DNA of 13,657 nt, taken from UHGV virus genome UHGV-0069434. One strand, given 5' to 3'. This stretch comes from a virus. The notes under the pieces are model-generated. The model saw only the letters and a program-made list of their open reading frames with translations. It did not search any database and was not told the DNA's origin. Position numbers and translations under genes: made by a program. Shown here piece by piece: positions 2,338 through 13,482 of the stretch (position 1 is its first letter; every line of letters begins with the position of its first letter).

Positions 2338-2700
2338 TTAATGACCTGCTGCGCGTAGTTTTCCGTCAGGTTCACCGGCAAGAGTCAGTAATTGTCCCTG
2401 GTCTTCCTGCAGAATAGTCAGGCGACCACCGCGATTGACATACATCGGCGTTTCGGTGGTGTCTTCTTCGGAAATTTTCCCGCGGTTAGTTGGGCGAACA
2501 TATGAGAGTTTGTGTTTGATTTTCACACGGTTCTCATCAAACGGTTCGATTTCCAGGTTGAGCGAGACCTTACCTTTGGTTTTCGTGTTCATCACACCGG
2601 AAGCGACTTCACTGAGAACTGCGCCGAGTTTGGTTTCAAATACGCCGCCGTCCAGCTCCCCGATAAATGCCTGCACATCAGTACTGCGTTCGCTAGCCAT
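2338..2700 (-). CDS. yfdP: Hypothetical phage early protein, 120 aa (YfdP-like); first gene of the leftward early operon
   Basis: Track ORF 2338..2931 (197 aa) has a long N-terminal extension. Internal ATG at 2700 (MASERSTDVQ...) is preceded by AGGAG 7-8 nt upstream and gives exactly 120 aa, matching CPS-53 YfdP length from memory. The upstream extension runs through a structured inverted-repeat region. Confidence 0.55.
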   Translation of the reverse strand: MASERSTDVQAFIGELDGGVFETKLGAVLSEVASGVMNTKTKGKVSLNLEIEPFDENRVKIKHKLSYVRPTNRGKISEEDTTETPMYVNRGGRLTILQEDQGQLLTLAGEPDGKLRAAGH

Positions 2701-2748
2701 TTTGCTGCTCCTCATCATATCGACCCTGCAAGGTCGGTTGGTTTCTCC

Positions 2749-2837
2749 ACAAAACAGAGAAGAACACCTGCGGTGACTGCCGCCCGGATGGATTGGGTTA
2801 TGAGCCCGTCGTCCGGTGATTCTCTTCTCTGTTTTGT
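2749..2837. repeat. Perfect 15-bp inverted repeat (ACAAAACAGAGAAGA at 2749..2763; TCTTCTCTGTTTTGT at 2823..2837) separated by 59 bp, in the leader upstream of the yfdP-like gene
   Basis: Read directly from the sequence; the arms are exact reverse complements. The spacer contains further short inverted repeats (CCGG-rich). Confidence 0.6.
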
Positions 2838-3308
2838 AAAAAGAGCGGTACCAGCCGGAAGCAAGGGTACAAACTGGTACCGCCAAAGCAGTGGCTGTTG
2901 TGGTGGGGTTGTCACTCAGGCGTATGGTCAACCTGACAATCCGGTGCCCTCAACGGGGAAAGAGTAACCCCGCCATACTTACCGCCGCGCCATTTCGCGG
3001 ATTACCACAACGCTGAGAGCACTTAGCCAGTTACGGCACCACACTTTGTCGCGGCTCCATAAATGCCCTCATCGTTGCACCCTGGTCTCTTCCCAGGCGT
3101 CAAACCGAATCGCCACGCTGGTTAGGCGTCTTATCAGCATCATCATTGACTTGCACATTCCGGCTACCTGGTTTGTTTGCCCGAGCAAGGAGTGGATTGT
3201 CCCCTTTAACGTCCCCAGACCGCTAACGACGCATGTGCCATACGCCGTGTTACAACCAAATTTTGTTAGTACCTTGTTTGTTTGTCTGGAAAGAAAGATA
3301 AAATGAAG

Positions 3309-3323
3309 TTGCGCATTATGCAA
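3309..3323. promoter_or_regulatory. Operator site OL-a: TTGCgcattatGCAA (TTGC-N7-GCAA palindrome)
   Basis: 15-bp site with palindromic ends read directly; the same architecture recurs at 3333..3347 and 4092..4106, flanking the repressor gene on both sides. Confidence 0.5.
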
Positions 3324-3332
3324 GTGTTTTTG

Positions 3333-3347
3333 TTGCGAGATATGCAA
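3333..3347. promoter_or_regulatory. Operator site OL-b: TTGCgagatatGCAA
   Basis: Second copy of the TTGC-N7-GCAA motif, 9 bp from OL-a. Confidence 0.5.
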
Positions 3348-3361
3348 TTTAAAGGGTAATG

Positions 3362-3383
3362 AAAAGCCACCTTTGGGTGGCTA
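3362..3383 (-). terminator. Intrinsic terminator downstream of the cI-like repressor gene
   Basis: Minus-strand transcript: AGCCACC-caaa-GGTGGCT hairpin (7-bp GC-rich stem) followed by TTTTCATT, about 20 nt after the repressor stop codon (3403..3405). Confidence 0.5.
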
Positions 3384-3402
3384 ATTGATGAGGAGGTAAG
3401 GG

Positions 3403-4071
3403 TTAATTGTGTCGCTTAAGGGTTTGTGACCGTCTGATTAAGACCTTTCCAAAGACCATAAACCGGTGTTCATTTTCGCTGGTAATTCCCCATTCACGGT
3501 AAATCTGGTTATCAGAAATCACCAGTAGTTTGTCAGGTATCATTTGCAGTCGTTTGACATAAATTTTATCATCAAAACCAAATACATAGATACCATCTCC
3601 ATCAAACTGATTGATACTGACATCAACGAAGATGAGATCTCCTGGCTCAATGGTTGGACACATACTGTCCCCACGAACGTTGATAACTTTAATGTGATTG
3701 GCTGGCCGTCCGCCAAACATCGATACAGCATTATCAGTTCTGTATTCAATGGCATGAATCACATCAATGACATCACCGCCCTGGATAAGGCCATTTCCCG
3801 CACTGGCACTGACATCCAGCATTTCAATACGGAATACATCCTTCACCTGCGCAACATCCTCACTAATACTGTTTTTACATACAGTATTACTTTTGACGTC
3901 TGAGGTAAAGAGATCAGCAATATCAACACCTAAGCTCCTGGCAATATTACTCAGGGCTTGTTCAGTGAATTGTTTCTGCTTACCTGTTTCCAGTCCTATT
4001 GCTTCAGCGAGATCGGCGATTTTCATGTTCTTCGCCTGGCGAAGTTGTCTGACTCGGTTTCCTATGTTCAT
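3403..4071 (-). CDS. cI-like prophage repressor, 222 aa: N-terminal XRE-type HTH plus C-terminal S24 (LexA-like) autopeptidase domain
   Basis: N-terminus NRVRQLRQAKNMKIADLAEAIGLETG is a typical HTH; C-terminus has the S24 motif VRGDSMCPTIEPGDLIFVD and a candidate Ala-Gly cleavage site (SASAGNG). Divergent from a cro-like gene, with operators on both sides. Confidence 0.85.
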   Translation of the reverse strand: MNIGNRVRQLRQAKNMKIADLAEAIGLETGKQKQFTEQALSNIARSLGVDIADLFTSDVKSNTVCKNSISEDVAQVKDVFRIEMLDVSASAGNGLIQGGDVIDVIHAIEYRTDNAVSMFGGRPANHIKVINVRGDSMCPTIEPGDLIFVDVSINQFDGDGIYVFGFDDKIYVKRLQMIPDKLLVISDNQIYREWGITSENEHRFMVFGKVLIRRSQTLKRHN

Positions 4072-4168
4072 GCGTTTATTACATTTCTTTATTGCGCGTT
4101 AAGCAAATCAACTTGCGCAAAATATTTGCGTGAAATAATATGCTCATCACGCAATATGTGGAGGTCAT
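4072..4168. promoter_or_regulatory. OR region with divergent promoters (pR-like rightward for cro; pRM-like leftward for the repressor)
   Basis: Perfect operator TTGCgcgttaaGCAA at 4092..4106; palindromic TTGCGCAA at 4113..4120; weaker ATGCtcatcacGCAA at 4140..4154. Rightward: -35 TTGCGC (4113..4118), 17 nt, -10 TAATAT (4136..4141), then GGAGG before cro ATG 4169. Leftward: -35 TTGCTT (rc of 4101..4106), 17 nt, -10 TGTAAT (rc of 4078..4083), which places the start at or next to the repressor ATG (leaderless, as for lambda pRM). Confidence 0.5.
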
Positions 4169-4429
4169 ATGCAATCACCATTACGGAATATGCGTAAGGC
4201 GCACGGATTTACTTTGCAGCATGTTGCTGCTGGCGTTCAGGTCAATCCAGCGACGCTGAGTCGTATTGAAAGACTGGAACAAATTCCATCTATCGATCTT
4301 GCAGAACGTCTGGCCAATTTTTTTAAGGGTGAAATCAGCGAAATGCAGATTCTTTATCCGGCACGTTTTCAATCTAGCCAAAACCAGAATGGGTTTAAAC
4401 CACAGGAACAGGAGGTAAGCCGTGGGTAA
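4169..4429 (+). CDS. Cro-like HTH (XRE family) regulator, 86 aa
   Basis: ORF track; HTH signature GFTLQHVAAGVQVNPATLSRIERLEQIPS; divergent from the repressor; GGAGG 4 nt upstream of ATG. Confidence 0.75.
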   Translation: MQSPLRNMRKAHGFTLQHVAAGVQVNPATLSRIERLEQIPSIDLAERLANFFKGEISEMQILYPARFQSSQNQNGFKPQEQEVSRG

Positions 4430-4973
4430 TCATCACTGGAAAGTGGAAAAACAGCCTGAGTGGTACGTGAAAGCTGTCAGAAAAACTATCGCGGCGTTGC
4501 CGGGGGGTTACGCTGAAGCTGCTGAGTGGCTGGATGTAACAGAGAACGCATTATTTAACCGCCTTCGTGCCGATGGCGATCAGATTTTCCCGCTGGGATG
4601 GGCAATGATTTTACAACGTGCTGGTGGCACTCACTTCATTGCCGACGCTGTGGCGCAGTCTGCAAATGGCGTCTTTGTGTCTCTTCCTGACGTCGAGGAT
4701 GTGGACAACGCCGATATTAACCAGCGCCTGCTGGAAGTCATTGAACAGATTGGCAGTTATTCCAGACAGATTCGTTCGGCAATCGAAGACGGTGTGGTGG
4801 AACCGCATGAGAAGACAGCAATTAACGACGAGCTGTATCTCTCAATTTCGAAGCTGCAGGAGCATGCAGCACTGGTCTACAAAATCTTCTGCGCTCCAGA
4901 AAAGAGTAACGCCCGCGAGTGTGCAGCTCCGGGCGCCGTGGCGTGTCGTGACTGTGGAGAAACTAACGCATGA
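4422..4973 (+). CDS. CII-like early regulatory protein, 183 aa
   Basis: GTG start with GGAGG about 7 nt upstream; overlaps cro stop. Region [36 protein letters not shown] resembles the HTH and following helix of lambda CII as I recall it; position immediately after cro fits. Confidence 0.55.
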
Positions 4974-5308
4974 ACAGTTTAACAACACACTACCGTCGCT
5001 CGCAACTGATTGCGCTTCCTGTACCGGGTGGAAAAGCGAAGGTGGAGTATTGCTATGCAGTAAATGTACCAGGTGACAGGGAAATTGTAACCCACAGCTT
5101 TGCTGAGTGGGCTGTGGGAGATTTCAACCGGCAGAAGGAGACAGTCCTTTGCGACAAGTTAACCGCTGGTTCAAAGATCACTACGGAGTGCCCGTCAGAG
5201 TCATTCGTTGGGAGCCGGAAACACAACGAGTTATCTACCTCCGCGAAGGCTATGAGCATGAGTGCTTCAGCCCGCTCGAACAGTTTCGTCGTAAATTCAG
5301 GGAAATAG
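4970..5308 (+). CDS. Hypothetical protein, 112 aa in track; the N-terminal roughly 60 aa look protein-like, the C-terminal half is Ser-rich low complexity
   Basis: ATG overlaps the preceding stop (ATGA). The compositional change after about residue 60 coincides with the start of a better-looking ORF in another frame (5149..5328). Confidence 0.4.
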
Positions 5309-5328
5309 AGGTCGGTCATGAGCACTAA
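5149..5328 (+). CDS. Small protein, about 59 aa, alternative frame ([58 protein letters not shown])
   Basis: TTG at 5149 is preceded by AAGGAG (5135..5140) at 8-nt spacing. The translation has balanced, protein-like composition. Track lists the frame from GTG 5107, which lacks an SD. Stop overlaps the replication gene start by 11 nt. Confidence 0.4.
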
Positions 5329-6175
5329 ATTAACCGGCTATGTATGGGATGGTTGCGCTGCGTCAGGCATGAAATTATCCAGCGTGGCAATTATGGCCCG
5401 CCTGGCTGATTTCAGTAATGACGAAGGTGTGTGCTGGCCATCAATTGAAACTATTGCCCGTCAGATTGGCGCGGGGATGAGTACCGTCAGAACGGCTATC
5501 GCACGGCTGGAAGCAGAAGGCTGGTTAACGCGTAAGGCGCGTCGCCAGGGTAACCGCAATGCGTCGAATGTTTATCAGCTTAACGTTGCGAAGCTTCAGG
5601 CAGCGGCATTTTCTCAACTGTCAGATTCTGACCCGTCAAAATCTGACGCATCAAAATCTGACACGTCAAAATTTGATGTGTCGAAATCTGGCAAAAAAGC
5701 GGGTTTTCACCCGTCAGAATCTGGCGGGGATCCGTCAGTAAAATCAAAACAAGATCCACAAGTAACTTCAAAACCCTCTTGTCCGGTTGCGGCGCAACCC
5801 GACCCTGAAGTTGTGATTACCGACCAGGCAATTTTGGTTCTGACCCATTTGAACCAGATCAGCGGATCCCGGTATCAGAAATCAAAAACATCCCTGGAGA
5901 ACATCCGCGCCCGACTGCGTGAGGGATACAGCGTTGCAGACCTGCAACTCGTTATCGACCTGAAGCATGAGCACTGGCACGAGAACGACGAGCAGTACCA
6001 GTACATGCGGCCGGAAACGCTGTTTGGCCCGAAGAAATTCGAGAGCTATCTGCAAAGCGCTACCCGCTGGGATCAGAAGGGACGGCCTAAACGCGCTGAC
6101 TGGGGTGCGAAAAAGCGCGATGTGATGGCTTTTGGTCCGGTTGATACAACGATTCCAGAGGGGTTCAGAGGATGA
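5318..6175 (+). CDS. Phage replication initiator / replisome organiser (lambda O-like role), 285 aa
   Basis: N-terminal HTH-like region (VAIMARLADFSNDEGVCWPSIETIARQIGAGMSTVRTAIARLEAEGWL). C-terminal region (LTHLNQISGSRYQKSKTSLENIRARLREGY...HEHWHENDEQYQYMRPETLFGPKKFESYLQSA) resembles the conserved phage replication-protein C-terminal domain. Tandem iterons lie inside the gene. Confidence 0.7.
   Translation: MSTKLTGYVWDGCAASGMKLSSVAIMARLADFSNDEGVCWPSIETIARQIGAGMSTVRTAIARLEAEGWLTRKARRQGNRNASNVYQLNVAKLQAAAFSQLSDSDPSKSDASKSDTSKFDVSKSGKKAGFHPSESGGDPSVKSKQDPQVTSKPSCPVAAQPDPEVVITDQAILVLTHLNQISGSRYQKSKTSLENIRARLREGYSVADLQLVIDLKHEHWHENDEQYQYMRPETLFGPKKFESYLQSATRWDQKGRPKRADWGAKKRDVMAFGPVDTTIPEGFRG
5621..5726. 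repeat. Tandem 15-bp iteron-like direct repeats (core GTCAAAATCTGAC), putative phage origin of replication inside the initiator gene
   Basis: Read directly: CCGTCAAAATCTGAC (5633..5647), GCATCAAAATCTGAC (5648..5662), ACGTCAAAATTTGAT (5663..5677), GTGTCGAAATCTGGC (5678..5692), plus partial copies at 5621..5632 and 5711..5725. Each core has internal dyad symmetry (GTCA...TGAC). The repeats encode SKSD-type peptide repeats and generate the repetitive ORF artefacts at 5559..5771. Confidence 0.55.
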
Positions 6176-7071
6176 CGTTAAACAAATATTGCCAGGCGCT
6201 GGCGGCACTACGTAGCAAACCAGCCCACCAACTGAAAGAAGTTGGCGATCAGTGGCGGACGCCGGATCTGCTTTTTTGGGGGATCAACGCGCTATTTGGT
6301 CCATTAGTTTTGGACTTGTTTGCAGACGACGACAACGCGAAATGCCCGGTATGGTACACCGCCGAAGATAACGCGCTGGTGCAGGATTGGGCGGAAATGT
6401 TGGATTCAATCGGCGGGGCCGCATTCGGTAATCCACCCTATAGCCGCTCTCAGTACCACGAGAAACAGGCGATCACCGGCATGACCCACATCATGGATCA
6501 CACAATGGAGATGCGTGAAAAGGGTGGGCGTTATGTGTTCCTCATTAAAGCGGCGACAAGTGAAACATGGTGGCCGGAAGACGCCGATCACATCATGTTT
6601 ATTCGCGGTCGCATTGGTTTCGATCTCCCTGTGTGGTTTGTTCCTGCCGACGATAAGCAGAAACCCACAGGTGCTTTCTTTGCTGGTGCAATCGCTTTGT
6701 TCGACAAGACCTGGCGCGGCGAGCGTTTCAGCTACATCAGCCGTACCGATCTGGAGGAAAAAGGGAAGGCGTTTATGTCACTGGTCGAATTTGCCGCGGG
6801 AAAGGTTCAGCCACCAGCCACCATGGTGCCAGAGCAAGAAGAACCCATTGTAGCGCCAGCAGTATTACCTGATGTGGATTCGCGTATCTGGCCGCTTGAG
6901 GTTGGTCTGGTGTTCAACCAGGTTGAGGGGGCGGATTCTCTGGACGCATCGCAGCAGAACAAGCTGAAAGCGAACATTAACCAGCTGTGGCTTGAGCGTA
7001 TGCCAACCAGCGAAATCATTACTACTGCTGGTGGACTGGTCAGCAGCATGCAGGGGGCCATCAATGCGTGA
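6172..7071 (+). CDS. Phage-type N6-adenine DNA methyltransferase (phage Dam family), 299 aa
   Basis: LDLFADDDNAKCPVWYTAEDNALVQDWAEM...FGNPPYSRS matches the phage N6A-methyltransferase family signature including the NPPY catalytic motif. ATGA overlap with the replication gene stop. About 100 aa of C-terminal extension beyond the usual domain size. Corresponds in position to the yfdM fragment of CPS-53. Confidence 0.8.
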   Translation: MTLNKYCQALAALRSKPAHQLKEVGDQWRTPDLLFWGINALFGPLVLDLFADDDNAKCPVWYTAEDNALVQDWAEMLDSIGGAAFGNPPYSRSQYHEKQAITGMTHIMDHTMEMREKGGRYVFLIKAATSETWWPEDADHIMFIRGRIGFDLPVWFVPADDKQKPTGAFFAGAIALFDKTWRGERFSYISRTDLEEKGKAFMSLVEFAAGKVQPPATMVPEQEEPIVAPAVLPDVDSRIWPLEVGLVFNQVEGADSLDASQQNKLKANINQLWLERMPTSEIITTAGGLVSSMQGAINA

Positions 7072-9061
7072 GATTATCGTTGATAACTTTGCTGGTGGCG
7101 GTGGCGCATCAACGGGTATTGAACTGGCGATCGGGCGCAGCGTGGATATTGCGATCAACCACGACGAAAACGCCATTGCGATGCACAAGACGAACCACCC
7201 GGACACACTGCATTACTGCGAATCCGTGTTTGACGTGGATCCGGTAGCCGCCACTGGCGGTAATCCTGTCGGCCTGGCATGGTTTAGCCCGGACTGCCGA
7301 CATTTCTCGAAGGCCAAAGGCGCAAAGCCTGTGAAAAAAGAGATACGCGGTCTTGCCTGGATTGTTCTGCGTTGGGCACTGGCGAAGCGACCGCGCGTGA
7401 TGATGCTGGAGAACGTGGAAGAGTTCAAAACGTGGGGACCGTTAATTGACATCCCGCCTAAACCTGATTTGCCGGAAGCCCTTATGGCGGATTTTATTGG
7501 CCCGGTTTACCCTGGAAATAGTCGCCCAGACCCTGCCCGCACTGGAGAAACATTCAATGCATTTGTCGGCATGCTGTCCACTGGCATTCCTGCTGATCAC
7601 CCGGCACTGTCAGAGGTTTGTGAGTTTCTGTCTATTGAAAGAGGTAGCGAGCAGGCGCAACAGTTGGTGGATGGGCTTGGATATGATGTCGATTATCGCG
7701 AACTGCGCGCGTGTGATTACGGCGCGCCGACGATCCGCAAACGCTTCTTCATGGTCATGCGCTGCGATGGTTGTCCAATCCAGTGGCCTGCTGTTACCCA
7801 TGGGGATCCTAAGTCTCTGGAGGTGCAGAGCGGCAGGCTGATGCCATGGCGTACCGCTGCGGAATGTATCGACTGGAATGTTCCGGCCCTGTCCATCTTC
7901 GACCGCAAAAAACCGCTGGCGGAGAACACTCTGAAGCGGATCGCGCGCGGCATACAGCGCTTTGTTATCGAAAGTGCGTCGCCGTTTATCGTGAAGTGTA
8001 ACCACACAAGCTCAAAAAATTCGTATGACGCTTTTCGCGGGCAGTCGCTGAATGAGCCATTACAGACCATTACTAAAAAACTCGGCTACGCGTTAGCCGT
8101 TCCACACCTGACAAAATTCCGCACTGGCGCAACCGGGCAGCCCGTTACCGAACCAGTCCCGACGGTAACCGCTGGCACATCAAAACGTCCAGGTGGGAAT
8201 GGGCATGCACTCGGGATTGTTGAGGCTGCACTGACGCCATTCCTGGCGGGTAATGGCGGGAGTGAATACCAGGCTAAACCGCGCCCGCTGGATAAACCTG
8301 CTCATACCATTCTGAAGCAATCCCGCGCCTGTCTTGTTGCGCCAGTGATAGCCCGCCAGTTTGGGGCCAGCGTAGGCCATCGGGCAGACGAACCGAGCGC
8401 AACCATCACCGCTGGCGGTGGCGGTAAATCTCAACTGGTAACGCCTACGCTGATCCAGATGGGTTATGGCGAACGACCTGGACAAGAACCGCGTGTGCTG
8501 CGGCTGGATAACCCGCTGGGGACCGTTACTGCAGGTGGAAATAAATTCGCGACGGTGAGCGCGTTTCTGGCGAAACACTACGGCGGTAACTACACGGGAC
8601 CGGGTGTCAGTATGGATGAACCCGCGCACTCAGTGACCACTGTCGACCATCATGCAGTAGTTGCCTCTCATCTGGTGAAACTGCGTGGAACATGCCGCGA
8701 CGGGCAGCGCCTTGATGTACCTATGCCAACCATCACCGCTGGAGGCCAGCACGTGGGTGAGGTGCGCACATTTCTCGAGACATATTGCGGGGAAAGTGAC
8801 GATGAATGGCTGGTAACGATCAATGGGGTTAAATACCAGATCGTTGATATCGGAATGCGCATGTTGCAGCCGCATGAACTCTACAAAGCGCAGGGCTTCC
8901 CGGATGGATACGTTATTGATCAGGACTACCGTGGAAATCGCTATGCAAAAGATAAGCAGGTAGCCCGCTGCGGTAATGCGGTACCACCACCATTCGCCAG
9001 GGCGCTGGTGGAGGCAAATCTTCCGGAACTTTGTGCAGTGCAACAACAGGAGGTGGCATGA
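7064..9061 (+). CDS. DNA cytosine-5 methyltransferase, 665 aa, with expanded repeat-containing variable region
   Basis: Motif I DNFAGGGGAS; Cys motif WFSPDCRHFS (PCQ-like variant); motif VI MMLENV; later QGFPDGY and CGNAVPP (motif X-like). I take ATG at 7064 (MREIIV..., G-rich SD, 8-nt overlap with upstream stop) rather than the track's upstream extension from 6992. Confidence 0.8.
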   Translation: MREIIVDNFAGGGGASTGIELAIGRSVDIAINHDENAIAMHKTNHPDTLHYCESVFDVDPVAATGGNPVGLAWFSPDCRHFSKAKGAKPVKKEIRGLAWIVLRWALAKRPRVMMLENVEEFKTWGPLIDIPPKPDLPEALMADFIGPVYPGNSRPDPARTGETFNAFVGMLSTGIPADHPALSEVCEFLSIERGSEQAQQLVDGLGYDVDYRELRACDYGAPTIRKRFFMVMRCDGCPIQWPAVTHGDPKSLEVQSGRLMPWRTAAECIDWNVPALSIFDRKKPLAENTLKRIARGIQRFVIESASPFIVKCNHTSSKNSYDAFRGQSLNEPLQTITKKLGYALAVPHLTKFRTGATGQPVTEPVPTVTAGTSKRPGGNGHALGIVEAALTPFLAGNGGSEYQAKPRPLDKPAHTILKQSRACLVAPVIARQFGASVGHRADEPSATITAGGGGKSQLVTPTLIQMGYGERPGQEPRVLRLDNPLGTVTAGGNKFATVSAFLAKHYGGNYTGPGVSMDEPAHSVTTVDHHAVVASHLVKLRGTCRDGQRLDVPMPTITAGGQHVGEVRTFLETYCGESDDEWLVTINGVKYQIVDIGMRMLQPHELYKAQGFPDGYVIDQDYRGNRYAKDKQVARCGNAVPPPFARALVEANLPELCAVQQQEVA

Positions 9062-9444
9062 AACTTGTGCTCCCGTTCCCTCCGAGCGTGAACACTTACT
9101 GGCGCGCCCCTAACAAGGGGCCGCTGGCCGGTCGTCACCTCATTAGCGCTGATGGCCGTAAATACCAGAGCGCTGCCTGCGTGGCGATCATTGAGCAATT
9201 ACGACGTCTCCCGAAGCCATCGACTGAACTGGCAGCGGTAGAAATCACTCTGTACCCGCCGGATGCGCGCCGCCGGGATATCGATAATTACAACAAAGCC
9301 CTGTTTGACGCGCTGACACATGCGGGTGTCTGGGAAGACGACAGCCAGATTAAGCGCATGCTGGTGGAATGGGGACCCGTTGTGCCGAAAGGTCGGGTAG
9401 AGATAACGATCAGCAGATATGAACCGGCGGGTGCAGCCGCCTGA
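9058..9444 (+). CDS. rusA: Crossover junction endodeoxyribonuclease RusA (Holliday junction resolvase), 128 aa
   Basis: MKLVLPFPPSVNTYWR...DARRRDIDNYNKALFDALTHAGVWEDDSQI matches the RusA family (PPS-N-xYW N-terminus, catalytic Asp cluster). ATG at 9058 with GGAGG upstream and ATGA overlap with the methyltransferase stop; the track's upstream extension is rejected. Confidence 0.85.
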   Translation: MKLVLPFPPSVNTYWRAPNKGPLAGRHLISADGRKYQSAACVAIIEQLRRLPKPSTELAAVEITLYPPDARRRDIDNYNKALFDALTHAGVWEDDSQIKRMLVEWGPVVPKGRVEITISRYEPAGAAA

Positions 9445-9457
9445 TATGGAGAAAAGT

Positions 9458-10144
9458 ATGAGCCAGTTAATCGTGAATGGTGTTGTAACAATGTCCAGCC
9501 GTGATATTGCGGATCTGGTTCAGAGTAAACACAGTGACGTGAAACGCTCGGCTGAGCGTCTTGTTGCTGCGGGAATTTTAACCGCGCCGTTGGCGCAGTT
9601 CGATTTTGAGCATAACGGTAATGTTTACCAGGAGTATCGTTTTAACAAACGCGACTCTCTGGTGATTGTTGCCAGACTGTCACCTGAATTTACCGCCGCG
9701 GTTGTCGATCGCTGGCAGGAACTGGAAGAAGGGCAGAGTGTCAGTGTTCCCCGCTCATTGCCGGAAGCGCTTCGCCTGGCTGCTGATTTAGCCGAGCAGA
9801 AAGAGCAACTGACCATCCAGCTGGCAGCTGCGGCGCCAAAAGTGGAGTTTGTTGATCGTTATTGCTCTGCAAAAGGCTCCATGTCATTCCGGCAGGTAGC
9901 CAAATTGCTCAACGCAAAAGAAACTGAGTTCCGCCTGTTCCTTATTGAACGCAATATCCTGTATCGCCTCGGCGGCACACTTACCCCTATGGCGCAGCAC
10001 ATTTCCGCGGGAAGATTTGAAGTTAAGACGGGAACATCGAGCACATCCAATCACGCATTTAGCCAGACGCGTTTCACTGCCAAGGGAGTACGCTGGATTG
10101 GTGGTTTGTGGGCTGAACATATTGCAGGGGGACAGGCGGCGTGA
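9458..10144 (+). CDS. Phage antirepressor, 228 aa: Rha-type N-terminal domain plus KilA-C/ANT C-terminal domain
   Basis: N-terminus VTMSSRDIADLVQSKHSDVKRSAERL...YRFNKRDSLVIVARLSPEF is typical of Rha; C-terminus FRQVAKLLNAKETEFRLFLIERNILYRLGG is KilA-C-like. Start at ATG 9458 (GGAG 6 nt upstream) preferred over track start 9419. Confidence 0.75.
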   Translation: MSQLIVNGVVTMSSRDIADLVQSKHSDVKRSAERLVAAGILTAPLAQFDFEHNGNVYQEYRFNKRDSLVIVARLSPEFTAAVVDRWQELEEGQSVSVPRSLPEALRLAADLAEQKEQLTIQLAAAAPKVEFVDRYCSAKGSMSFRQVAKLLNAKETEFRLFLIERNILYRLGGTLTPMAQHISAGRFEVKTGTSSTSNHAFSQTRFTAKGVRWIGGLWAEHIAGGQAA

Positions 10145-11136
10145 GGGCTTTGTTAACTCCTGAAGTCGCCCATCGTATGGGGATTGTGTTGTTTCGTCCC
10201 GGCGCGGAACTGATGCACCTCTTCATGCGTGGTCGCGTTCTGCTCGAGCCTGAACCAGAAGAAATGGCGTCATTCAGTACAGGGGCTGTTCCCGCCGCCA
10301 TTCAGACGCTGGCTGATGATCCGGTAATGCGGCAGGTCTTCGGGAATGAGCGGGTTATTCAGCGTGCCGGTGGGCTTCCTTCCCTTGAGCAGTGGCTGAG
10401 TTCTCGGTTTGAATGCCAGTGGCCACATTCATCGTGGCACGACAAGAATTTCACAACAATGCGGCACCCACCAGGAAGTATTCGCCTGTGCTGGCATTGC
10501 GATCACACTTTGTCGGGGCAGCATACCGAACAGCTTGCAGGTATAGCGGCAGGAAACCTGGTATCCTGGATTCTGGAAGTCATTCGGCGTGATTCTGGTT
10601 TTCCCGAGTCGCATATCCTGACGCTTCCGGAACTGTGCTGGTGGATGGTCAGAAACGACCTGGCTGATGTTATTCCGGAAAGCGTTGCGCACAAGGGGTT
10701 ACGCCTTCCGGATGAGAAGATCCGCTCGGTCATGAGGGAAAGCGACATTGTGCCTTCCGCTTCTGCAACCAGCCTAGTGCAGGAGAAGGCGAAGAAGATC
10801 CTCACGCTCTCTGTTGATCCGGAGTCTCCAGAATCTTTCATGCTCAGGCCAAAGCGACGCCGCTGGATAAATGAGACTTACACCCGCTGGGTTAAAACAC
10901 AACCCTGTGAGTGTTGCCGACGGCCAGCCGATGATCCGCACCATATCGTAGGGCACGGTATGGGGGGGACAGCAACAAAAGCCCATGATCTCTTCGTGAT
11001 CCCTCTGTGCAGAGAGTGCCACGACGAGTTACACGCCGATGTACCGGCATTCGAGCAGAAGCATGGTACGCAGCTTGAGCTGCTACTGCGTTTTATGGAT
11101 CGGGCGCTGGCGATCGGCGTAATTGCGAAAGCTTAA
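10141..11136 (+). CDS. Phage protein with C-terminal Cys/His-rich HNH-like nuclease motif (DUF968-like), 331 aa
   Basis: GTG start overlapping the previous stop (GTGA). C-terminus CECCRRPADDPHHIVGHGMGG...LCRECHDELH is a zinc-binding HNH-like signature. Sits where nin-region nucleases are found in lambdoid phages. Confidence 0.6.
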   Translation: MRALLTPEVAHRMGIVLFRPGAELMHLFMRGRVLLEPEPEEMASFSTGAVPAAIQTLADDPVMRQVFGNERVIQRAGGLPSLEQWLSSRFECQWPHSSWHDKNFTTMRHPPGSIRLCWHCDHTLSGQHTEQLAGIAAGNLVSWILEVIRRDSGFPESHILTLPELCWWMVRNDLADVIPESVAHKGLRLPDEKIRSVMRESDIVPSASATSLVQEKAKKILTLSVDPESPESFMLRPKRRRWINETYTRWVKTQPCECCRRPADDPHHIVGHGMGGTATKAHDLFVIPLCRECHDELHADVPAFEQKHGTQLELLLRFMDRALAIGVIAKA

Positions 11137-11847
11137 GTGTATGGAGCGCAAAGAAGCATGAATCAACAAGATCTGAATTTTGTAAGAATAGAATTGCGCC
11201 ACGCGCTACCTGACCTCTCTGGGGGAACAAAAGGGCAGCTTGAGGCTTTCAGTGAACACCCACCAGCAGACAAAAATGCCACCCCGCGCCGTGGAATTCA
11301 TCTCGTCGAACTCGAAGGAGAGAAGGGGCCACGCTTTGTTAACTCGCTTTCCGCGCCACTGTATGTGATGGAAACACGCAGCCGCCGCAGGCCAATGCCG
11401 CCGATAAAAGATGCGGAATTTGAGTCAGCGCCGTGGCGTAGGGCAGTGTCCGCGCTTAGTGGATACCAGCAGGCCTGGTTGCGGTACTGCTACGGTTTTG
11501 ACCTTAGCTATAAGCACCAGGTGATGATGTGTGAATACGTCTGGAAAACTTATCAGAAATGCCTGGGTGATAACTCGCTTCAGGAGCGCGTAGTAAAGAA
11601 ACTGATAGGCCTGGTATGGCTGGCAGGGCAGGAAATTGCCGCAACCAGAAATAATGAAACCTATAAAGACTATGCTGGTGCAGCGTTGGCCCGCATGGTT
11701 AGCGTTGACCGTTCGACATGGTTGCGTGTCTATTCAGGCCACTGGGCTGGGTTAAAGACCGCTTTTACGCAGCTTGATGAATCTGCGTTGACCATGGCTC
11801 TTGAATACTATGAGGAAGAAGAAGCCCTCAAAGTGGCAGAAATGTGA
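11137..11847 (+). CDS. Putative late-gene antiterminator (Q-like by position), 236 aa
   Basis: Last gene of the rightward early operon, immediately followed by a promoter-like region and a strong intrinsic terminator, which is the Q / PR' / tR' arrangement. No sequence motif recognised with confidence; an alternative ATG start lies at 11158. Confidence 0.45.
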   Translation: MYGAQRSMNQQDLNFVRIELRHALPDLSGGTKGQLEAFSEHPPADKNATPRRGIHLVELEGEKGPRFVNSLSAPLYVMETRSRRRPMPPIKDAEFESAPWRRAVSALSGYQQAWLRYCYGFDLSYKHQVMMCEYVWKTYQKCLGDNSLQERVVKKLIGLVWLAGQEIAATRNNETYKDYAGAALARMVSVDRSTWLRVYSGHWAGLKTAFTQLDESALTMALEYYEEEEALKVAEM

Positions 11848-12429: not shown

Positions 12430-13482
12430 ATGAAAAATACTGTAAAAATAAACAGTGTTGAGTTAATCAACGCTGATAGCCTGCATTACGTCGCCACCCT
12501 CCCGGATAACTCTATTGATCTGATAGTTACGGATCCTCCGTACTTCAAAGTGAAGCCCAACGGCTGGGACAACCAATGGAAGGGGGACGAGGACTACTTA
12601 CGCTGGCTTGATAGCTGCCTGGCTGAGTATGCTCGCGTTCTTAAACCTGCTGGCAGCATCTACCTGTTTTGCGGTCATCGACTGGCCTCAGACATAGAGA
12701 TTATGATGCGTGCCCGGTTCAACATTTTGAATCACATCATCTGGGCAAAGCCATCGGGCCGCTGGAATGGTTGTAACAAAGAAAGCCTGCGCGCGTATTT
12801 TCCATCAACGGAACGGATTTTGTTTGCTGAGCACTATCTTGGGCCGTACACAGGTAAAGAGGATGTTTACGAAAGGAAAAGCACAGAGCTAAAGCAGCAT
12901 CTTATGACGCCACTGATTGACTACTTCCGTAATGCCCGTGAATCACTGGGTGTCAGCTCGAAAGAAATAGCTGAGGCAACCGGAAAGAAAAACATGGCGT
13001 CACACTGGTTTGGTGCAAGCCAATGGCAACTACCAAATGAAGTGGACTATAGAAAATTGCAGGAACTGTTCACGAGGATCGCTATCGATAAGCACATTCA
13101 GCAGAAGCTTGAACATCCTCACCACCAGCTGGTAGCCACCTATCAGTCATTAAACCGCAAGTATTCAGAATTGCTGGAGGAATACAAAACCCTCCGGCGC
13201 TGCTTCTCTGTTTCCGTTCTTGTTCCGTATACCGACGTATGGACGCATAAGCCTGTTCAGTTTTATCCAGGCAAACATCCATGCGAAAAACCTGCCGACA
13301 TGCTGAAGCAGATCATTAGCGCCAGCAGCAGACCGGGGGATATCGTTGCCGATTTCTTTATGGGCTCTGGTTCAACTGTGAAAGCTGCAATAGAACTTGG
13401 TCGTCGGGCGATCGGCGTAGAACTGGAAACCGACAGGTTTATTCAAACCACCGAAGAGGTGGAAAAACTCAACAAAACATAA
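12430..13482 (+). CDS. Beta-class amino-methyltransferase, probably N6-adenine (motif IV before motif I), 350 aa
   Basis: N-terminal SIDLIVTDPPYF (DPPY motif IV) and C-terminal DIVADFFMGSGSTVKAA (FxGxG AdoMet motif I), with a roughly 200-aa intervening target-recognition region. Weak SD at the ATG. Confidence 0.8.
   Translation: MKNTVKINSVELINADSLHYVATLPDNSIDLIVTDPPYFKVKPNGWDNQWKGDEDYLRWLDSCLAEYARVLKPAGSIYLFCGHRLASDIEIMMRARFNILNHIIWAKPSGRWNGCNKESLRAYFPSTERILFAEHYLGPYTGKEDVYERKSTELKQHLMTPLIDYFRNARESLGVSSKEIAEATGKKNMASHWFGASQWQLPNEVDYRKLQELFTRIAIDKHIQQKLEHPHHQLVATYQSLNRKYSELLEEYKTLRRCFSVSVLVPYTDVWTHKPVQFYPGKHPCEKPADMLKQIISASSRPGDIVADFFMGSGSTVKAAIELGRRAIGVELETDRFIQTTEEVEKLNKT

Follow-up and report, generated by a model that had tools for sequence, protein, structure and literature searches.

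Does the tandem repeat inside the initiator gene of a lambdoid prophage serve as the origin from which the phage replicates, or does it only encode a peptide linker? This question was raised by the virus genome UHGV-0069434, a 13,657-base pair (bp) metagenome contig that holds the early region of such a prophage and that we analysed over its whole length (the window). An earlier reading of this DNA, here called the original prediction, had taken an array of 15-bp repeats in the initiator gene as iterons and as a putative origin. That an origin can lie inside the initiator gene has been a textbook principle since lambda. We found that the repeats are a functional element at the level of DNA, and judging from sequence comparisons we consider it likely that positions 5612–5800 form the cis-acting replication origin of the prophage, in the linker-coding part of its own initiator gene.

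Repeat array within the initiator gene

The gene and the features that concern us here are as follows.

5318–6175, plus strand: initiator gene, 285 amino acids (open reading frame (ORF) list, Pfam, PHROG)
5318–5611, plus strand: N-terminal DNA-binding domain, amino acids 1–98, presumed reader of the iterons (alignment of homologs)
5618–5692, plus strand: five contiguous 15-bp iterons (repeat searches, homolog conservation)
5693–5713, plus strand: spacer AAAAAAGCGGGTTTTCACCCG, A6...T4, which puts the sixth core 33 bp past the fifth
5714–5724, plus strand: sixth, displaced core TCAGAATCTGG (same relative position in most homologs)
5729–5775, plus strand: A-rich low-stability segment, candidate unwinding region (stability, homolog conservation)
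5757–5770, no strand assigned: mosaic joint, in the A-rich segment (megablast, alignment)
5781–5803, no strand assigned: G+C-rich inverted repeat GTCCGGTTGCG / CGCAACCCGAC, which closes the conserved block on the right (repeat search)
5837–6055, plus strand: Phg_2220_C domain, presumed module for recruiting host replication (Pfam, TIGR02220)

Tandem Repeats Finder reported a 15-bp period at 5627–5676 (3.3 copies, 85% matches) and also a 30-bp period at 5627–5690, and a repeat search recovered six in-register copies spaced 15, 15, 15, 15 and 33 bp apart. The five contiguous cores occupy 5621–5631, 5636–5646, 5651–5661, 5666–5676 and 5681–5691, the fifth being degenerate (TCGAAATCTGG). An 18-bp A6...T4 segment lies between the fifth unit and the sixth core, and the TTTTCAC part of the spacer at 5693–5713 resembles a degenerate half-site. 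With at most one mismatch allowed, the 11-nucleotide (nt) core TCARAWTYTGA matched five times in the window, always within 5621–5724, and four of these matches were exact and in the 15-bp register; the chance expectation for the whole window was 1.15.

Each unit is made up of one variable spacer codon and four core codons, and the units read in frame LSDSD (CTG TCA GAT TCT GAC, 5618), PSKSD (5633), ASKSD (5648), TSKFD (5663) and VSKSG (5678). The core consists of two inverted 5-bp half-sites, and the units abut. Half-site centres are alternately 6 and 9 bp apart, the 15-bp period corresponding to about 1.4 helical turns. This unbroken alternation of half-sites gives the array the same symmetry around core centres as around spacers.

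Much of what the original prediction had said about the array was borne out. The 15-bp tandem repeats were recovered by both searches; they were correctly placed inside the initiator ORF, where they code for SKSD-type peptide repeats; and the internal dyad symmetry ascribed to the cores was found in the arms 5620–5632 and 5635–5647, which are 92% complementary. The 13-mer quoted as the core, GTCAAAATCTGAC, is present, but it is exact only once (5635–5647), and the other units differ from it at 1–3 positions. The A-rich stretch that was said to follow the repeats is real (A6 at 5693–5698; 70% A+T at 5734–5773), although only modest, and the interval 5621–5726 lies inside the element but covers only part of a conserved block of about 5612–5800. 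We also considered a minus-strand terminator-like hairpin at 5700–5713 (CGGGTGAAAACCCG plus a T run, iterons 5/6) and rejected it, as it is not conserved in KpF5 and phiNP.

Conservation of the block as DNA

We collected homologs from phage records and from one genome per species, which gave 77 distinct sequences from about 70 Enterobacterales species, ranging from Escherichia/Shigella to Yersinia, Rahnella, Pantoea, Providencia and Proteus. All 77 keep 3–9 in-frame units, in exact 15-bp steps and at the same place in the gene. Codon sharing, the probability that two sequences with the majority amino acid also have the same codon, was 0.42 in the N-domain (codons 1–98, 82 columns), 0.86 in the repeat block (codons 99–160, 49 columns) and 0.59 in codons 161–185, with majority amino-acid frequencies of 0.84, 0.64–0.76 and 0.65, respectively. 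Both steps were significant by the Mann-Whitney test (N-domain vs block, 7e-18; block vs following codons, 3e-5). When the window was compared with phage LLS alone, codons at conserved residues were identical in 26 of 81 cases in the N-domain and in 27 of 31 in the block (Fisher, 1.3e-7).

Codon choice in the homologs could be followed down to single positions of the unit. Serine is written TCA/TCT in the block and mostly AGC in the N-domain, and the ratio of the lysine codons AAA and AAG is 474:8 in the block vs 250:162 in the N-domain. Unit codon 3 is AAA, GAA, GAT or AAT (K, E, D, N) and never AAG, GAG, AAC or GAC; lysine, glutamate, aspartate and asparagine interchange there because the DNA motif is R-A-W. 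At this codon, therefore, changes that reverse charge are tolerated and silent ones are not. None of the three positions of the spacer codon is fixed (P, A, T, G, V, L), and information content resolved into a contiguous 11-nt block and a variable 4-nt spacer, without a period-3 pattern. Divergence of the block among homologs is confined to positions that the motif permits, which excludes merely recent transfer. The original prediction had named homologs that keep the peptide repeat without the nucleotide periodicity as a finding that would speak against it; what we observed was the opposite, since the nucleotides stay and the peptide drifts. Taken together, codon sharing, free spacers and the RAW pattern demonstrate that selection acts on the DNA, and that the repeats belong to a functional DNA element under purifying selection over about 190 bp.

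The constrained DNA, as delimited by codon conservation and homolog alignment, extends from about 5612 to about 5800 and thus takes in more than the iterons. The A-rich segment consists of two GATC-headed 22-nt direct repeats, GATCCGTCAGTAAAATCAAAAC (5729–5750) and GATCCACAAGTAACTTCAAAAC (5753–5774), the first of which starts with the iteron-like half-site CCGTCAG. Within it, the 40 bp at 5734–5773 (70% A+T) are the least stable of the neighbourhood and rank at the 97.8th percentile of the window for duplex instability. The DNA of this segment is near-invariant in the 77 homologs, and the motif GGGGATCCGTCAGTAAA hardly changes between Escherichia and Morganella. All members of the set keep the GATC at 5729, Asp138 being always GAT with Pro as the next residue, and the one at 5753 is almost as constant. 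Clustering of GATC sites as such was rejected as a feature: four sites in 140 bp are not exceptional for the window, and we claim no enrichment but only the conservation of 5729. At the right edge, the inverted repeat 5781–5803 is common to relatives with different C-terminal domain types, and codons 152–162, which coincide with it, are conserved at the codon level.

Initiator modules and the origin reading

The repeat block encodes a low-complexity linker between two domains of the initiator. The N-terminus matched the winged helix HTH_36 (PF13730, 1.3e-11, amino acids 23–70) and the C-terminus matched Phg_2220_C (PF09524, 1.3e-23, amino acids 174–246; also TIGR02220), and the whole protein matched the PHROG families phrog_428 'replication initiation protein' (1.3e-70) and phrog_391 'replication initiation O-like' (1.4e-54). 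A sequence search of solved structures returned only weak MarR-type winged-helix matches (E about 0.006).

These domains have different histories. Over nucleotides 1–440 the gene shares 98–99% identity with genes annotated as 'replication protein' in Shigella phages SfIV and SfII and in several E. coli phages, and over nucleotides 453–858 it shares about 91% with a gene from Salmonella phage 118970_sal3. The SfIV gene joins this N-domain and array to a C-terminal domain homologous with that of lambda O (BLASTP 1e-25), and in 118970_sal3 the Phg_2220_C C-terminus follows a different N-terminus with its own four 23-bp repeats at the same place. C-terminal domains were thus exchanged at the joint just right of the array, and the N-domain and array were co-inherited. 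The joint flanks TCTTGTCCGG...GCAACCCGAC are common to relatives with different C-terminal domains and could therefore serve as a homology patch for module exchange.

Several details of these relatives deserve mention. In SfIV, despite the lambda-O C-terminus, the next gene codes for a PerC-like protein and not for P (SfIV 3939–4433), and in YeP1 the initiator is followed by a 156-amino-acid ORF with no assignment (3514–3984); the lambda-O C-terminal domain therefore also occurs without an adjacent P partner. The 437-amino-acid gene of 118970_sal3 (2434–3747) extends about 110 residues past the shared ...IPEGFRG end, which could reflect a fusion, read-through or a sequencing issue, and a second repeat family of about three 12-bp copies is found at 2956–2998, just before the shared part.

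More distant HTH_36 initiators, those of Min27, Salmonella phage SI5 and Klebsiella phage RothC, have N-domains that are 43–45% identical over amino acids 25–94, and other repeats at 21–24 bp spacing directly after the N-domain: GGGGTGGGGCAGGAGCTGCCC three times in Min27, GGGGTGGGGCAGGAGCTGCCC-type units in SI5, and TATGCCATCTGATGGCA-type units four times in RothC. The repeat sequence thus changes along with the DNA-binding domain of the initiator, the Min27, SI5, RothC and 118970_sal3 types all being different. An N-domain paired with its repeats, and a C-domain that can be swapped, are as expected if the N-domain reads the repeats. Within the family, the helix STVRTAI (amino acids 55–61) and the wing RRxGNRNASNVY (amino acids 75–86) are almost invariant in 62 homologs with the same core and are altered (R58I, S83T; G53K/S55N/R58T) in small groups with differing cores, among them the Providencia core variant TCTGT. 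This covariation of helix and wing with the core (R58I, S83T, Providencia TCTGT) is only suggestive.

Because conservation holds for the DNA of the array and not for its peptide, we take the array to be most probably the replication origin of the phage, as originally predicted; its DNA-level character, its position between the domains and its co-inheritance with the N-domain all support that part of the prediction, and the assignment to the lambda-O family did not stand. We propose that the HTH_36 N-domain would bind the five contiguous iterons and the displaced sixth. By analogy with lambda, the resulting nucleoprotein complex, together with rightward transcription from the cro-side promoter, might destabilise 5729–5775 (PMC5043065). 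The Phg_2220_C C-domain may then recruit the host helicase machinery directly, a step that we propose since no gene for a P-, DnaC- or DnaB-type protein is present in the phage.

Phage LLS offers a complete genome for comparison. It is a cos siphovirus isolated on E. coli K-12, with a 284-amino-acid homolog of the same architecture as its only annotated replication gene. All three exact core matches of that genome, and a fourth with one mismatch, are found in this homologous gene 44, and the remaining core matches are scattered singletons at about the chance level. Judging from the gene content of LLS, the single-initiator arrangement suffices in a viable phage.

Likeness to lambda ori, which combines four iterons in gene O and a 40-bp A+T-rich region with the O-P-DnaB pathway, is considerable. 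Here, as in lambda, the array lies inside the initiator gene between the DNA-binding N-domain and a C-terminal partner-binding domain, with the first core 303 nt (in lambda O, 348 nt) from the start of the gene; dyad symmetry is present in the units; directly to the right comes an A-rich segment of low stability; the gene stands in the rightward early operon after cro and cII; and the N-domain and iterons form one specificity module with an exchangeable C-domain. The differences are equally plain. Our units are 11–13 bp long at 15 bp, compared with 18–19 bp at 20–24 bp in lambda (where the same tool gave 20-nt units spaced 20, 24 and 23 bp apart); there are five or six of them instead of four; and the A+T-rich segment has 70% A+T instead of 80%. 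The N-domain is HTH_36, in contrast to Phage_rep_O (PF04492/TIGR01610) in lambda; neither profile matched the window protein, although lambda O as a control gave 5.7e-36 and 5.4e-39. The C-domain is Phg_2220_C, and a Dam methyltransferase gene occupies the position that P has in lambda. The original prediction had called the initiator 'O-like', and membership of the lambda-O family is not supported: the N-domain is HTH_36, there is no P/DnaC-type neighbour, the geometry is 15 bp, and the A+T region is weaker. We conclude that the element probably works like lambda ori but that the initiator is not a lambda-O family member, because N-domain family, iteron geometry, C-domain and the missing P gene all differ.

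Other known systems resemble the element in part. The lambdoid Shiga-toxin phages 933W and P27 have six lambda-type iterons within O, whose product is lengthened by the amino acids that the additional iterons encode, and silent mutations in iterons of this type abolished plasmid establishment (Kozlowska et al., 2020, PMC7466680). They differ from the present case in their lambda-type iterons (ATCCCTCAAAACGAGGGA) and O proteins and in having a P protein as well. We rejected the idea that the P27 of that study represents a phiP27-type gene as found here, its iterons being lambda-type. Iteron plasmids such as pSC101, P1, F, R6K and RK2 likewise combine one winged-helix initiator with tandem repeats beside an A+T-rich segment, encode no helicase loader and rely on the host for loading, and some iteron initiators of lactococcal Rep_3 theta plasmids are fused to Phg_2220_C (PMC4490491). 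Their repeats, however, are direct, in phase (about 22 bp), outside the rep gene and accompanied by DnaA boxes, whereas those described here are inverted half-sites at 15 bp, inside the gene and with no DnaA box nearby. A similar layout is seen in the Min27/phi24B-type 'O', SI5 and RothC, in which a homologous N-domain is followed by a repeat array inside the gene; they differ in that the repeats are unrelated, 19–24 bp long and spaced 21–24 bp apart, and in that the gene is followed by one for a primase-helicase or P-type protein.

Several observations weigh against the origin reading. The A+T-rich segment reaches only 70% over 40 bp, and lower stability is found at several intergenic sites of the window. 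At a spacing of 15 bp, neighbouring sites face almost opposite sides of the helix, and a wrapped complex of the lambda type may therefore not form; the iterons of plasmids usually keep helical phase, and those of lambda bind dimers of O and bend the DNA (PMC5043065). A search for DnaA boxes with up to one mismatch found none within the block or next to it; the nearest, both on the minus strand, lie in the cII-like gene at 4700 and 4953. With neither a loader gene nor a DnaA box, the helicase-loading step lacks sequence support. Folding of the block's transcript is predicted to be exceptionally stable (z = -4.9), the quality of the structure model was insufficient to back any geometry of DNA binding, and NCBI labels such proteins either 'GntR family transcriptional regulator' or 'conserved phage C-terminal domain-containing protein'. 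We also counted 57 9-mers in the window that differ from the DnaA box TTATCCACA at no more than two positions, where 34.9 are expected; none of 200 shuffles reached that count.

Helicase loading is the weakest step of the proposal, in which the C-domain would recruit the host machinery directly; Phg_2220_C has a weak PHROG match to 'DnaD-like helicase loader' (1.2e-8). One could go further and suppose a distinct class of origin, in which the initiator coats the DNA as a continuous helical filament, Phg_2220_C loads DnaB without a loader that is phage-encoded or dependent on DnaA boxes, and GATC couples firing to the downstream Dam methyltransferase. We regard this version as doubtful, and a link of GATC methylation to origin firing is speculation.

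The origin reading has to be set against explanations in which the DNA has another task. The repeats may bind the initiator for regulation, that is, for autorepression, as a roadblock, for titration or for pairing of copies, with the duplex opening elsewhere in the phage. Plasmid iteron arrays do act in copy control too (PMC5043065), and such a role would suit a moderate A+T-rich segment, the less stable sites elsewhere in the window and a 15-bp out-of-phase spacing that is atypical for an origin. However, the conserved DNA runs about 75 bp past the last iteron, across the A-rich segment and the inverted repeat, as expected of a complete origin, its position and order match lambda ori, and neither the window nor the whole LLS genome holds a second cluster of the motif. 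We therefore find a purely regulatory array unlikely.

It is very unlikely, in our estimate, that the sites are read by a different protein, such as a host factor, another phage regulator or the product of the upstream ORF (4970–5308). This ORF does lie directly 5' of the initiator gene in many relatives, but the repeat type tracks the N-domain of the initiator, including in Min27, SI5 and RothC, which have other upstream genes, and a host factor would leave the subfamily-specific repeats unexplained.

Alternatively, the element could act as RNA or as single-stranded DNA, with hairpins of the units affecting translation, mRNA stability or priming. The 211-nt transcript 5600–5810 has a predicted energy of -68.2 kcal/mol compared with -46.7 kcal/mol for shuffles (z = -4.9, none of 200 as stable), and core positions 4 and 8 are weakly associated (odds ratio 3.6, p = 2e-4). 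Folding energy is uninformative here, though, since any palindromic array is bound to fold well. In the most frequent unit, TCAAAATCTGA (110 of 394), the two positions that would have to pair form an A-C mismatch, as they do in 208 of the 394 units altogether. It is sequence identity that is conserved, not pairing, and the repeat type changes with the DNA-binding-domain subfamily. We give this account very little credence.

Finally, that the repeats are a mere Ser/Lys/Asp linker born of replication slippage, their similarity due to recent duplication, transfer or an overlapping ORF, has a negligible chance of being correct, and as a pure peptide-linker account it is essentially refuted: copy number does vary in 15-bp (5-amino-acid) steps, as slippage gives, and the region is predicted, at low confidence, to lack secondary structure, but the DNA is better conserved than the peptide, with silent changes near-absent and K/E/N/D and S/F exchanges common, over about 70 species whose N-domains are heavily diverged at silent sites; alternative frames that are open for a median of 57–77 codons shrink to 3–25 codons in some homologs, and an 11-nt block with a free spacer and no period-3 signature in any frame counts against an overlapping ORF as well.

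Gene setting, distribution and significance

The initiator gene lies within a typical series of early genes, of which we identified the following.

3403–4071, minus strand: cI-type repressor gene
4169–4429, rightward: cro-type gene
4422–4973, rightward: cII-like gene
4970–5308, plus strand: small ORF of 112 amino acids directly 5' of the initiator gene (phrog_1170, 3.8e-70)
6172–7071, plus strand: Dam-family N6-adenine methyltransferase directly 3' of the initiator gene (PF05869, 3.1e-44)
about 7064–9061: C5 methyltransferase (PF00145)
9031–9444: RusA
9419–10144: antirepressor
10141–11136: DUF968/HNH protein
11137–11847: antiterminator Q
12430–13482: third methyltransferase, N6_N4 (PF01555)

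To the left of the early region are yfdQ-like (DUF2303) and yfdR-like (YfbR-like 5'-deoxynucleotidase) genes. Pfam and PHROG scans detected no helicase, primase, DnaC-type or P-type gene in the window. The order initiator–Dam methyltransferase is also found in phiNP, LLS and KpF5, and in 118970_sal3, YeP1 and ST101-KPC2phi6.3 a small ORF stands between the two. The 112-amino-acid upstream ORF precedes the initiator gene in SfIV, LLS, KpF5 and many genomes as well and may be part of the replication module; it had no Pfam match in our scans, and a neighbour of this type is named 'DUF4222 domain-containing protein' by RefSeq. Apart from the replication genes, we noted that three DNA methyltransferase genes (Dam-family, C5 and N6_N4) fall within 13.6 kb, that PF00145 matches the 665-amino-acid product of the C5 gene in three stretches, which suggests large insertions, and that the cI-type repressor gene holds a 9-bp tandem repeat, TCAATGACA, at 3746–3775 (3.3 copies, 76% matches).

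The exact initiator protein of the window is recorded only from its contig in the European Nucleotide Archive (ENA). The module of N-domain and array, on the other hand, is widespread, with matches in 2,029 of 5,426 complete E. coli genomes and in prophages of about 70 Enterobacterales species. Laboratory strains of E. coli carry truncated copies, with nucleotides 1–234 of the gene beside a terminase gene and nucleotides 231–440 beside yfdR. The truncated copies of K-12, in e14 and CPS-53, are listed as lambda-O-homolog pseudogenes. A small plasmid replicon relying on the gene was considered and rejected: the 15-kb matches represent the excised e14 circle with a truncated copy and a prophage fragment, and the remaining matches in the plasmid collection are megaplasmids or mislabelled chromosomes. 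The record OR902851.1, deposited as a 'plasmid', is a 15.2-kb circle that bears mcrA, part of icd and an invertase gene and is apparently e14 in excised form. Outside the Enterobacterales, copies of the gene that are nevertheless of Enterobacterales type (82–89% amino-acid identity) turned up in assemblies under the names Vagococcus, Chryseobacterium and Martelella, and 'Elizabethkingia phage EKP1' (OM284015.1) has a copy at 61% amino-acid identity; all of these are probably contamination or mislabelled hosts.

The iteron sequence occurred in no paper of the literature searched, and the same literature held no description of, or experiment on, the repeats or origin of the HTH_36/Phg_2220_C initiator family; the curated LLS phage record annotates no origin. 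What was already known is the label 'replication initiation O-like' in phage databases. Our results overturn nothing; what is new is a widespread, unannotated lambda-style layout in a different initiator family, with tight, out-of-phase iterons. The block accounts for the odd low-complexity stretch in the initiator protein, and it could be used as a marker to locate the origin of these prophages and to assign their replication specificity type. It is, besides, a tractable subject for two questions: by what route a lambdoid phage that has one initiator gene and lacks a loader obtains the host helicase, and whether iterons packed so closely and out of phase are able to open DNA.

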